Shown piece after piece: positions 39,932-49,442 of a stretch of DNA of 64,000 nucleotides. Position numbers and translations under genes: made by a program. The notes beneath the pieces are model-generated. The model was not told where the DNA came from and did no database searches. It saw only the letters and a list, made by a program, of their open reading frames with translations. Source of the stretch: Takakia lepidozioides. Lineage: Eukaryota; Plantae; Bryophyta. Location: the NCBI GenBank assembly GCA_030704615.1, contig CM060731.1, positions 73,966,001 to 74,030,000 on the forward strand, written 5' to 3'. Every line of letters begins with the position of its first letter. Positions within the stretch are counted from its first letter, which is position 1.

Positions 39932-41387
39932 ATGCAGCATAAGATGGTAGTAGTAATGGGTTTAACGAAGGCGCTGATGGTCGTTACAACGTTTACAATG
40001 ATTGTGTTGTATCGGGGAACCATACCCACAGTATCAGGACAGCGGTGCAATGAAGCTGGTAGTCCCGGGAGGAGAGATTTCCCCCAAGGCTTTGGATTTG
40101 GGACTGCCTCTGCTGCTTATCAGGTGCGGATCCTGCAGAGCTCTCAGTATACTTTAAAGTTTTGACCTGTTCTGTCCTTGTTTGATCACGTTTTTTCCTC
40201 TAGCTCTGTCTTCGTTAGATTTTACATTCATGGATCTAGCTAACACCAGTTTTGCACTAAGCGAAGAGCTTTTCCCCTGAGAAAACTGTCCACAAACTCT
40301 CCAAGAGAATGATTGACACACAACATGATCGACACCTGCAGACAGTTCAAGCATAAATTTCTCGTGTTCATTTTCTGGGGCATACGAATCGTTCCTTTCC
40401 AACGACATCTCTTTAGCCGTCGACTGTAGGCTACTTAAAGCTCTAGAGATCAATGAAGAACTAGCTAAGAACAACTTTTGACCTGCATGTTCATAATATC
40501 CGAATTCGTCCGGACTAAAATTATAATCCGGCTGGGCTAGTATATAAGTGGAACAGCTCCTGCCTTAGGTGAAATTCTCATGGTTGTGACTCGGTTGTGA
40601 TGTCCTACAGTTGAACAGTATGCTGTTTGATAAGCAAAATTTTCTGTGTCCATGACGTATGTCATTACTGTATTTAAGTATTGCAGCATACATGGGAGCT
40701 GACTTCTCTGGATTTACTATACATATGGTTTGACGCCAGTCCCAAAATTTATGGAGGGTTCTGTTATAGGTTCACGGATCCCATTTTCTTTGGTGATTAC
40801 CCGGCCAGTATGCGGCAGTATGTCGGCTCCCGCTTGCCGAACTTCACTTAGAACCAGTCAGCTGTGCTGAAAGGCTCGGTCGATTTTTTTTGGTCTCAAC
40901 CAATACCTCTCGATGTATGCAACTGAAGACAACTGCAGCTTGTATTGTGAAGCTGACAGATGACTAAAAGTTAAAGTATTTATTGACGATATTGGCCTTT
41001 CTGACCCATGACTCCCACTCATAGATCAATGGTTCCTTGTGCAGGAGTTCGTGACGGAGTCCCAATTGGAGAAGTGGTACTTTTGCAAATTCTCTCTTCC
41101 GGCCACACTTGATGCATGCTAACTTTAGTAGTTCCTCGTTTTTTCTGCCTTGTCCCATGGCCCTCATGCTCGTGGTCCTCTGTGGCCGTTGTTCCATCTT
41201 TCCGTCTAGGTCTCTGTCTATGTCAGATAACCTCTACGCCAATTTTTACTGCTCATTTGGTAGTTCTACTGATATAAGTCGTGGTGTCTATATGACTTCG
41301 TTGCATTTGATGCTCGTTCCGTGCTTTACACTGCAATGCAGAGACAATGCAGTTCCTTTAAGGTATGATCTAAGCTCAATACCCTCC
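39932..41387 (+). pseudogene. GH1 beta-glucosidase pseudogene, paralogue of 53150-59038
   Basis: Exon 1 (39932-40123, ...[17 protein letters not shown]) and intron 1 align to the intact gene. The copy then jumps to exon 9 (40770, stop at ~40850) and exon 10. The 3' end is replaced by the LINE array. Confidence 0.9.
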
Positions 41388-44300
41388 ACATCTTGGAAGC
41401 AGGATCGCCCTATCAAACAGGCCAAGTCCTGGCGGAGGAGGGTAGAATAGATTTTCAAGAGTCTGAATCGAAGTCCGCAAGCCTTAACCTGCTGGATAAA
41501 TCTGACTTAGAGGCTGAAGTGTCCAAAGCCATGTCTGTTGTCAGGAAATTATCTGTGAAGTTAGGCAGAAAACTTCCCCGAACTTGTTTCCAGTATGTGA
41601 CATGGATGAGGCCATCATGGATGACCTCAAGGGTTTACCCACTCTTGGCACTAGACTGAAATTCAAACTCAGGGCGGGTAGCCTACCTTTGAACAGCAAA
41701 CAGACGCAAAAAGGAAAGGGGATTGTATTGCCCGTTGTGTGGGCAACCTGAGGACAATATCCACTTTCTGATTCATTGTCCAGGGTACTCTCACCAGAGA
41801 GACACCCTCTTCAAATCCATCAAGGGAATTGTGCCTGTACCTCTGTTTACCAACTTTGAAATTCTCGTTGCTGAGCCAAAAGCCCAGGCCCTTTTGGGGG
41901 CTAGTTATTGGGCAAATCACACACAACAGACTGATGTCTGTGAAGGGATTTCTAGAGGATATCTGGAAATCTCGGATCAATTGTATGTTTCAAGGTAAGT
42001 CATACTACCGGCTTCAGCCCCTGACAAAGATAGTTTCTGACCCTTTGTGTTCCGCTCAAACTGGGTGCGGGGTCAATGGCCACAATATGAGTACATTCTC
42101 TCTCTCTCTCTCTCTCTCTCTCTGTGGTCCTTGGAGTACGGATCTGCTATATGGGTTGATAACTCCAACCAGGCTAAGTCTCTAGAATCCATTCAAGTGG
42201 GGGTGCTTAAGGAGTGTATGTCAGCATGCTCCAAAACAGCCAATGTGGCTGTTCGGGGTGAGTTTGGCATTCCGTCCTTAAGCTCCCGACGAGATGAATT
42301 CAAGGTCAGATGGTGGGGTCAGCTGCAACATATGCCCAACACCAGATATCCTAAATTAATCGACTCTATATCTTGGAAACAGGACCGCCCTGTCAAACAG
42401 GCTAAGTCCTGGCAGAAGAGAGTAGAAGAGATCCTCAAGGACCTGGACCTGGATCCGCAAGTCTTGACCCTGCTGGATAAATCTGACTTAGAGGCTGTAG
42501 TGTCCGAAGCCATGTCTGTTGCCATGAGATTGTCTGATGAAAATGAAGTTCGGCAGAAAACTTCCCTGAACTTGTTTCAAGTCTGTGACATGGGGGAGGA
42601 CATCTTGGATGACCTCAAGGGTCTACCCACTCTCGGCACTAGACTGAAATTTAAACTCAGGGCAGGAAGCCTACCTTTGAACAGCAAACAGAAGCAGAGA
42701 GGAAAGGGAGAGTGCAATTGCCCATTGTGTGGGCAATCTGAAGACAGTATTCATTTTCTGATACACTGTCCGGGGTTCTCTCACCAAAGAGACGCTCTCT
42801 TCAAATCTATTAAGGGAATTGTGCCTGTACCCCTGTTTACCAACTTTGAAAGTCTCGAGGCTGAGCCAAAAGCCCAGGCCCTCCTGAGGCCTAGTTTTTG
42901 GGCAAATCACACACAGCAGATTGATGCTTGTGTGAAGGGATTTCTAGAGGATATCTGGAAAACCCGGATTAATTCTTTATATGGAGGTAAGTCTTACTAC
43001 CAACGTCAGCCCCTGACAGAGGTAGGTTCTGTCCCTTTTGTTCCCGCTCAAACTGGGCGCGGGGTCAATGGCCACAAGGCTACGGCAAACAACGTCTTAT
43101 GAGTACAATATCTCTGTGGTCCTCCCTTCCTACACTTACCTGGGCGTTGGGTTTTCCTCCAATTGTAATTGGGATGCACATATCCGGAAAGTTGTTCAAA
43201 CTGGAGGGCAAAGCTCTTGGGCTCACTAAATTTTTCCACTGCAGAGGGGTCAACTCTGAGGTTAAGAAAACCATGCTTTGTCGCATTATTAGACCTGCCT
43301 TGGAGTACGGATCTGCAATATGGGTTGATAACTCCAACCAGGCTAAGTCTCTAGAATCCATTCAAGTGGGGGTGCTTAAGGAGTGTATGTCAGCATGCTC
43401 CAAAACAGCCAATGTGGCTGTTCGAGGTGAGTTTGGCATTCCGTCCTTCAGCTCCTGACGAGATGAATTCAAGGTCAGATGGTGGGGTCAGCTGCAACAT
43501 ATGCCCAACGCCAGATATCCTAAGTTAATCGACTCTATATCTTGGAAACAGGACCGCCCTGTCAAACAGGCTAAGTCCTGGCAGAAGAGAGTAGAAGAGA
43601 TTCTCAAGGACCTGGACCTGGATCCGCAAGTCTTGACCCTGCTGGATAAATCTGACTTAGAGGCTGTAGTGTCCAAACCCATGTCTGTTGCCATGAGATT
43701 GTCTGATGAAAATGAAGTTAGGCAGAAAACTTCCCTGAACTTGTTTCCAGTCAGTGACATGGAGGACATCTTGGATGACCTCAAGGGTCTTTCCACTCTC
43801 GGCGCTAGACTGAAATTTAAACCCAGGGCAGGAAGCCTACCTTTGAACAGCAAACAGAAGCAGAGAGGAAAGGGAGAGTGCAATTGCCCATTGTGTGGGC
43901 CACCTGAAGACAGTATTCATTTTCTGATACACTGTCCGGGGTTCTCTCACCAAAGAGACGCTCTCTTCAAATCTATCAAGGGAATTGTGCCTGTACCTCT
44001 GTTTACCAACTTTGAAAGTCTCGAGGCTGAGCCAAAAGCCCAGGCCCTCCTGAGGCCTAGTTTTTGGGCAAATCACACACAGCAGATTGATACTTGTGTG
44101 AAGGGATTTCTAGAGGATATCTGGAAAACCCGGATTAATTCTATATATGAAGGTTAGTCTTACTACCGATGTCAGCCCCTGACAGAGGTAGGTTCTGTCC
44201 CTTTTGTTTCCCCTCAAACTGGGCGTGGGGTCAATGACCACAAGGCTATGGCAAACAACGTCTTATGAGTACAATCTCGCTGTGGGCGCGGGGTCACTCA

Positions 44301-44569
44301 CCCCACGGCTACGGCAAATGGGGCCAGTTATTGGGCAAATCACACACAGCAGATTGATGCTTGTGTGAAGGGATTTCTAGAGGATATTTGGAAAACCCGG
44401 CCTCGGTACATTACACCAAGGCAAGTCTTACTACCAACGTCAGCCCCTGACAGAGGTAGGTTCTGTCCCTTTGTGTTCTGCTCAAACTGGGGCGGGGTCA
44501 ATGGCCACAAGGCTACGGCAAACAATGTCTTATGAGTACATTCTCTCTCTCTCTCTCTCTCTCTGTGCT
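41385..44569 (+). mobile_element. Four 5'-truncated LINE copies in head-to-tail tandem
   Basis: Copies at ~41385-42096, 42127-43107, 43119-44273 and a composite at 44283-44540. Each ends ...ATGAGTACA plus a (CT)n-like tract and GTG. Confidence 0.92.
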
Positions 44570-48700: not shown

Positions 48701-49406
48701 ACAGGCTAAGTCCTGGCAGAAGAGAGTAGAAGAGATTCTCAAGGACCTGGACCTGGATCCGCAAGTCTTGACCCTGCTGGATAAATCTGACTTAGAGGCT
48801 GTAGTGTCCAAAGCCATGTCTGTTGCCATGAGATTGTCTGATGAAAATGAAGTTCGGCAGAAAACTTCCCTGAACTTGTTTCCAGTCAGTGACATGGGGG
48901 AGGACATCTTGGATGACCTCAAGGGTCTACCCACTCTCGGCACTAGACTGAGATTTAAACTCAGGGCAGGAAGCCTACCTTTGAACAGCAAACAGAAGCA
49001 GAGAGGAAAGGGAGAGTGCAATTGCCCGTTGTGTGGGCAATCTGAAGACAGTATTCATTTTCTGATGCACTGTCCGGGGTTCTCTCACCAAAGAGACGCT
49101 CTCTTCAATTCTATCAAGGGAATTGTGCCTGTACCCCTGTTTACCAACTTTGAAAGTCTCGAGGCTGAGCCAAAAGCCCAGGCCCTCCTGAGGCCTAGTT
49201 TTTGGGCAAATCACACACAGCAGATTGATGCTTGTGTGAAGGGATTTCTAGAGGATACCTGGAAAACCCGGATTAATTCTTTATATGAAGGTAAGTCTTA
49301 CTACCAATGTCAGCCCCTGACAGAGGTAGGTTCTGTCCCTTTTGTTCCCGCTCAACCTGGGCGCGGGGTCAATGGCCACAAGGCTACGGCAAACAACGTC
49401 TTATGA
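45665..49406 (+). pseudogene. LINE ORF2: AP endonuclease, RT and C-terminal Zn finger
   Basis: EN: LATFN, GQETW, LLGDFNARVG, VDYII, SDH. RT: KAGGPDGI, NYRGITLL, QAGFR, LDVKKAYD, QG..LSPLLF, MFADD, YLG. Zn finger: CPLC...HFL..C. One TGA at 47840-47842 and small deletions near 48650-48680. Confidence 0.95.
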
Positions 49407-49442
49407 GTACATCTCTCTCTCTGTGCTTGTTCCATAAGCTAT

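Follow-up and report, generated by a model that had tools for sequence, protein, structure and literature searches.

A 64,000-nucleotide stretch of the genome of the moss Takakia lepidozioides (assembly GCA_030704615.1, contig CM060731.1, positions 73,966,001 to 74,030,000; hereafter the window, to which all coordinates refer) carries an array of five copies of one long interspersed nuclear element (LINE). We propose that this LINE primes its reverse transcription from TCTC sites, most readily where TC runs are longer, and that the duplicated site lets later copies land at the junction; we give this reading a probability of roughly 75%. The element is an APE-type non-LTR retrotransposon, with an apurinic/apyrimidinic (APE) endonuclease and a reverse transcriptase in one open reading frame (ORF), 5' truncations and target duplications. 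An initial annotation, made from the letters alone, had described five same-strand copies of one family stacked head to tail, and this description holds: all lie on the + strand, at 41388-49411. It had also named (CT)n followed by GTG as a target that each insertion recreates.

The array and its target duplications

The copies and the junctions between them are as follows.

41388..42095, +, copy 1: 5'-truncated; the most diverged (85%); 20-nt deletion near the 3' end; left target duplication absent
42096..42131, +, junction 1: T, (TC)13, TGTG, GTCCT; carries the left repeat of the 13-bp duplication of copy 2, TCTCTGTGGTCCT
42129..43107, +, copy 2: 5'-truncated; sits inside the older copy 1/copy 3 junction
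43108..43123, +, junction 2: ATA and the right repeat of the duplication of copy 2, TCTCTGTGGTCCT
43118..44273, +, copy 3: 5'-truncated; 10-bp duplication with one mismatch, TCTCTCTGTG / TCTCGCTGTG
44274..44284, +, junction 3: ATCTCGCTGTG
44283..44540, +, copy 4: short; begins with 36 nt from the 3' end (44283-44318), then a 222-nt 3' fragment
44541..44569, +, junction 4: T, (TC)11, TGTGCT; carries the left repeat of the 16-bp duplication of copy 5
44570..49411, +, copy 5: nearly full-length, approximately 4.8 kb; a single long frame, now with stops and frameshifts
49412..49427, +: right repeat of the 16-bp duplication of copy 5, TCTCTCTCTCTGTGCT

The junction pattern first reported, ATGAGTACA followed by a CT tract and GTG, is present at all five copy ends, with a tract of uneven length: 13.5 TC units at junction 1, 11 at junction 4 and 5 at the right end, short or degenerate at junction 2 (ATATCTCTGTG) and junction 3 (ATCTCGCTGTG). 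The motif TCTC[TG]CTGTG occurs four times in the window, and all four occurrences are array junctions. A CT/GTG site does not accompany every copy, since there is none to the left of copy 1, which adjoins an intron of a truncated beta-glucosidase paralogue. Up to 41387 this left flank matches an intron in the beta-glucosidase-like paralogue next to the array; the rest of the truncated gene is missing. Because copy 1 has no left duplication and the gene is broken at 41387, a deletion is suggested; a later event of this kind likely removed the left flank of copy 1 together with the 3' half of the adjoining gene.

The leftmost copy is indeed the most diverged, as had been noticed: copy 1 shares 85% identity with copies 2, 3 and 5 and 81% with copy 4. 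Copy 4 is 86-90% identical to copies 2, 3 and 5, which in turn share 97-98% with one another and have private changes in each. The array copies thus fall into three divergence classes within an overall range of 81-98%. The insertion order that fits both the divergence and the nesting is copy 1, copy 4, copy 3, then copies 2 and 5.

Exact duplications starting with TCTC flank copy 2 (13 bp), copy 5 (16 bp, agreeing with the one reported for the last copy) and a lone copy of the family at 9019 (12 bp). The duplication of copy 2 includes GTCCT, the opening bases of copy 3, so that copy 2 entered a pre-existing junction. For copies 3 and 4 the duplications, read by eye at the junctions, measure 10 bp and contain a single mismatch; the exact-match script for duplications found none for these two copies. 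In total, four of the five array copies are flanked by a target duplication beginning with TCTC. When the same search was applied to random flank pairs, a duplication of at least 10 bp appeared in 15 of 20000. The claim of a target that each insertion duplicates is supported.

TCTC, TC tracts and GTG

Two further members of the family lie in the window outside the array.

9006..10883 (element 9019-10872), -: lone family copy, internally deleted; exact 12-bp duplication TCTCATCCTTAT
7862..8497, +: internally deleted fragment without a 3' end; 5' flank CTTCTCTTCATCTCTGTG

The copy at 9019 had been set down as one with only a weak CT-rich flank. It has neither a microsatellite nor a GTG, yet its duplication begins with TCTC. 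We also aligned read contigs from four runs (three samples; two of the runs may come from the source of the window) on the family sequence. Loose contig ends past the element end read TCTCTCTCTC.. in 464, 394, 37 and 92 contigs of the four runs, with 3713 loose-end rows beyond those listed. Under an operational rule by which an element is target-specific if one sequence type is found in more than 20% of the flanks of its family (PMC4494074), this consensus may point to a target-specific element. Among 12 listed contig joints with letters between the two alignments (415 more are unlisted), three start at the element end, and all three continue with A and TCTC. In two of these three, TCTC pre-exists in the reference at the landing place; both are nested insertions outside microsatellites, and TCTC at those offsets is found at 1.45% of random sites. 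Since TCTC was already present at the landing sites, it is not merely the tail of the element.

This bears on the reading in which the CT tracts are the simple-repeat tail of the element, insertion is near-random, and chromatin or selection makes a local hotspot. LINEs of the RTE group often end in simple repeats (PMC6007223, PMC3472496), the tract varies from 2 to 13 units across junctions as a tail might, and the contigs that we placed on an internal 371-nt stretch for 5' flanks are mostly subfamily variants. We nevertheless consider this explanation unlikely: TCTC flanks copies 2, 5 and 9019 on both sides and was present in the reference beforehand at the two nested landing sites, and relatives of the element (see below) bear (TC)n on their 5' side also.

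The opposite reading, that the endonuclease strictly recognizes (CT)n-GTG or long (CT)n in the manner of the fish element Kibi, accounts for CT and GTG at all five array junctions, for TCTCTGTG on the 5' side of the 7862 fragment and for the several relatives that sit within long (TC)n. It seems improbable, given that the 9019 copy and the three displayed contig joints have neither microsatellite nor GTG. At the independent insertion sites, TCTC is present at all five and a microsatellite is absent at four of the five. Of the proposed (CT)n target there remains a TC-directed preference that extends beyond the array; strict specificity is not supported, given the 9019 copy and the nested insertions at bare TCTC. 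GTG as part of a family target is not supported either; it is absent from the 9019 duplication and from those three joints, and was likely part of a single original host site, carried along by duplication. In place of (CT)n-GTG, the target is likely TCTC, with longer TC runs preferred.

Five copies at one place

Why should five copies lie at one place? If the seven copies in the window fell independently, the chance of finding five of them at one of its 645 TCTC sites would be near 1e-10. If the target doubles and seven long tracts are available, five at one tract has a chance of approximately 1.5%. A doubling model with assumed genome-wide inputs of 10000-40000 tracts and 0.25 insertions per tract gives 3-13 arrays of at least five copies, and the same assumed inputs without doubling give fewer than 0.3. 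Since the array was the reason for picking the window, doubling may be enough to explain it if long tracts are also preferred.

A further possibility is that the 3' end of an earlier copy improves the junction as a target, through longer RNA-DNA pairing or through the protein binding its own end. Five copies at one site exceed what simple doubling readily gives, the other tracts are empty, and six contigs of one run contain short joints that lead back from 49412 to 49366, at the 3' end. We regard such self-targeting as a poor candidate, because in a window picked for its array a rare large array is expected somewhere (on the assumed numbers above), and because the 3' end of copy 2 is complete though copy 1 lacks 20 nt there, so that no long overlap was used. 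It could also supplement the regeneration of TCTC instead of displacing it. It is highly improbable that the array arose by tandem or segmental duplication or in one event of template jumping, or that it is an artefact of assembly, even though the 36-nt piece heading copy 4 resembles a template jump or restart and no contig or long read among the contigs listed bridges the whole array: the 5' ends differ, the copies are 81-98% identical with private changes and the duplications are nested, so that neither collapse nor one event accounts for them, and the separate insertions of the initial annotation stand.

Several of these observations weigh against the reading that we prefer, namely regeneration of a TCTC target. 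Doubling alone reaches five copies at one tract only at the 1.5% just given, six other (TC)4+ tracts in the 64-kb window carry no copy, and the array lacks a listed contig across it. The preference for TCTC was judged from the window copies and the listed read-contig rows, which is a narrower base than the whole genome. Consensus agreement among the loose ends is just 0.43-0.46, which alone cannot separate tail from target. Besides the abundance of subfamily variants in the 5'-flank sample, its 18 listed rows (323 more are unlisted) include one clear outside flank, which has no microsatellite. As for GTG, it fits a single host site, although the unrelated 7862 fragment has TCTCTGTG at its 5' side too.

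The element and its relatives

Copy 5 and its comparison with relatives give the following anatomy.

44929..45300, +: N-terminal domain common to relatives; predicted ferredoxin/RRM-like fold (best E 0.016, a lead)
45340..45763, +: 141-bp tandem repeat, three in-frame units, separating the N-terminal domain from the endonuclease
45851..46585, +: APE-type endonuclease (Pfam PF03372, PF14529; motifs aligned)
47558..48313, +: reverse transcriptase (Pfam PF00078 in both halves); stop at 47840-47842
49023..49073, +: C-terminal CCHC-type finger, from sequence; nearest named atlas family zf-RVT, a lead
49368..49390, +: conserved 3' stem-loop within the last codons; stop codon 49404-49406, element end 49411

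In a fold search with the N-terminal domain, no match had an E-value of 0.001 or lower. This domain, the endonuclease and the reverse transcriptase form one ORF in relatives and are collinear in copy 5. With the stop codon 5 nt before the element end, the element has no 3' untranslated region (UTR). The family is very abundant: 46633 contigs from one run align to a 5.3-kb stretch, a figure distinct from a copy number. Both lone copies (7862-8497 and 9019-10872) carry large internal deletions, and matching deletion joints (46623 or 46627 to 48723; 47601 to 48137) occur at high depth in the read contigs; internally deleted derivatives may therefore be multi-copy. The proteins closest to 45338-47842 are 41-44% identical over the endonuclease and reverse transcriptase, and there is no named plant among them; a patchy distribution of the element is possible on these matches. 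Human L1 ORF2p is a distant profile match.

We collected relatives by a profile scan of metagenome contigs, from which the best 80 of 131 matching stretches gave 79 loci; copies may have been collapsed in these contigs. Where the frame of a relative is whole, it is a single ORF of approximately 1250-1800 amino acids. Nine of the 79 loci end in (TC)n within approximately 15 nt of the stop codon. A (TC)10+ tract in the first 300 bases is found in five of these nine and in one of the 70 others (Fisher p-value 3e-5, with rows that are not independent). Among the four (TC)n-ended loci without a 5' tract, two contigs begin inside the ORF and two in short tandem repeats. Loci L020 and L021 belong to one family but occupy separate TC sites, as their differing outer flanks show. 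Other relatives end differently, three in a C run and two in ATT-type repeats. The three with a C run (L001:4990-5008, L004:3769-3785, L006:2701-2719) end in TGAGTACG plus the C run, nearly the terminal motif of the window element. L014 has (TC)n on its 5' side (174-195) and (TCAC)n on its 3' side (5043-5074), and L030:4359-4442 ends in (TCTTTC)n; these repeats would be variants of the target. The exact 23-nt pattern of the 3' end had no match in the metagenome contigs.

For our main tree we selected 32 of the 79 loci, 18 of 62 proteins and the window element, of which 49 rows are left once sequences of fewer than 400 amino acids are dropped; another tree has 125 rows. Both contain unlabelled rows and are midpoint-rooted. 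A "TC" label on L062 in the 125-row tree is a false match and was ignored. The loci ending in TC, C and ATT form one clade with the window element (98.8 for the subgroup within it that unites the TC-flanked loci and 99.6 for the whole, by the Shimodaira-Hasegawa-like approximate likelihood ratio test, SH-aLRT). The TC-flanked subgroup leaves out the window element, which groups instead with the (C)n- and ATT-ended relatives, an arrangement that does not favor our reading. Either the use of TC is ancestral, with switches, or it arose more than once. By eye, the alignment of the endonuclease loop showed no residue private to TC-associated rows. Specificity appears to be moderate in T. lepidozioides and tighter in some distant relatives.

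A common stem-loop of eight pairs lies in the last 60 nt of all 17 elements compared (17/17). In the alignment 92% of its cells are paired, as against 27-52% in slid controls; five of the eight pairs have changes on both sides, none of 500 shuffles scored as high on three of five measures, and RNAalifold gives the same structure. The aligned rows are related and the region is coding, both of which count against reading too much into these values. The covariation is support, not proof, for a conserved stem-loop.

Proposed mechanism

It is tempting to assemble these features into a cycle. The single protein would bind its own RNA at the stem-loop in the final 60 nt, and its APE endonuclease would nick the GA strand. 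The freed DNA end could then pair with a short UC-type RNA tail and prime synthesis. Cleavage of the second strand 10-16 nt away would yield the duplication, and the duplicated TCTC site would be a fresh target for the next copy. Such a cycle would offer a route for LINE arrays and microsatellites to multiply jointly in a plant genome.

Comparison with known systems

Waldo and Mino belong to the R1 clade and are insect elements, and Kibi and Koshi, of the Tx1 clade, have separate ORF1 and ORF2 and a 3' UTR. The window element differs from that Tx1 layout in having one ORF with its stop codon 5 nt before the element end. The reverse transcriptase motif of the window element is one that we take to be of RTE type. 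The single ORF, the lack of a 3' UTR and this motif point to a probably independent origin from the Kibi and Waldo groups.

Target-specific APE-type LINEs have been reported mostly from the animal Tx1 and R1 clades (PMC4640811), and how such LINEs find microsatellites has been described as poorly understood (PMC3812793). Waldo and Mino, like Kibi and Koshi of teleost fish, are APE-type elements that insert into microsatellites, Kibi into (TC)n (PMC3812793, PMC4494074, PMC4640811). The window element shares the APE-type non-LTR character with these four and appears to work much as Kibi does. Whereas Kibi and Koshi are described as specific for (TC)n or (TTC)n, bare TCTC suffices here.

The closest description that we found is that of RTEX-1_Ec32, RTEX-2_Ec32 and RTEX-N1_Ec32 in Ectocarpus; RTEX-1 and RTEX-2 have a single ORF for endonuclease and reverse transcriptase, (C)n ends and C-rich duplications, and a non-autonomous RTEX partner "can be present in tandem" (PMC12477816). 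The likeness, one of description, lies in the single ORF, a 3' simple repeat that matches the target duplication and approximately 60 conserved 3' bases. The target is C-rich in the brown alga and TCTC here, and the relatives L001, L004 and L006, which end in (C)n, fit the Ectocarpus description. In RTE LINEs and in their short interspersed nuclear elements, the simple repeat at the 3' end is correlated with the base that opens the target duplication, and pairing between tail and target has been proposed (PMC6007223). The available text of that paper gives an overlap of one to a few bases and mentions no arrays, whereas in the window element all targets seen have the same four bases and relatives sit in long (TC)n. 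Stem-loops at the 3' end are common in stringent LINEs (PMC3472496). Plant elements are frequently surrounded by microsatellites, according to a review (PMC12477314). In another bryophyte, Marchantia polymorpha, LINE/RTE-X elements have likewise expanded and are clustered around centromeres (bioRxiv 10.1101/827881); the word "microsatellite" does not occur in the main text of that preprint. The available texts of PMC9940879, PMC12885004 and PMC5753468 hold nothing on targeting.

The published literature that we searched, which excludes Repbase, subscription papers and preprint supplements, yielded no TC-directed RTEX-like lineage and no such arrays in land plants. The logic of the array, in which a duplicated target is reused, was already known; the TC-directed habit is the new part for this LINE group and for land plants, as far as we found. 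A more far-reaching proposal, which we offer tentatively and hold to be rather doubtful, is that the element is a land-plant member of an old and widespread single-ORF lineage of RTE-group LINEs, in which the RNA is held by the conserved stem-loop and its final bases determine where insertion occurs (TC, C or ATT by branch). Microsatellite targeting by APE-type elements would then have originated a third time, beyond the Tx1 and R1 clades, with self-extending arrays that could be retargeted by a change of tail. A compact single-ORF lineage with a common 3' stem-loop, differing simple-repeat targets and intact frames among relatives makes the question of endonuclease versus RNA tail directly testable.

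Neighbouring features in the window

The array is bounded by two features.

39941..41387, +: beta-glucosidase-like paralogue (glycosyl hydrolase family 1), 5' portion, ending at copy 1; aligns to the 53147-59040 paralogue up to 41387
49441..50820, +: family B, a different 5'-truncated LINE with a (CATTT)n tail, at the right flank of the array

The glycosyl hydrolase family 1 genes at 39941-41387 and 53147-59040 are in tandem, and a (GA)13 tract stands directly before the start codon of the former. The best named match of the neighbouring host gene is a moss protein (59%), followed by lycophyte (51%) and liverwort (47%) proteins; an atlas search with the host gene gave no usable match. Both flanks of family B resemble a segment of its own 3' UTR (TTGTCCCA..AAGCT), and this family may insert into or beside its own kind. 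For the same reason, taking these flanks as its target duplication is uncertain.

Elsewhere in the window there are five related 730-bp repeats (87-98% identity; 6220-6944, 17969-18701, 23082-23814, 27570-28292 and 34858-35568). Two of them flank a chromodomain-bearing gag-pol at 18982-22178, and the repeats are likely long terminal repeats (LTRs) and solo LTRs. A 500-N assembly gap at 20540-21039 lies inside this LTR element.

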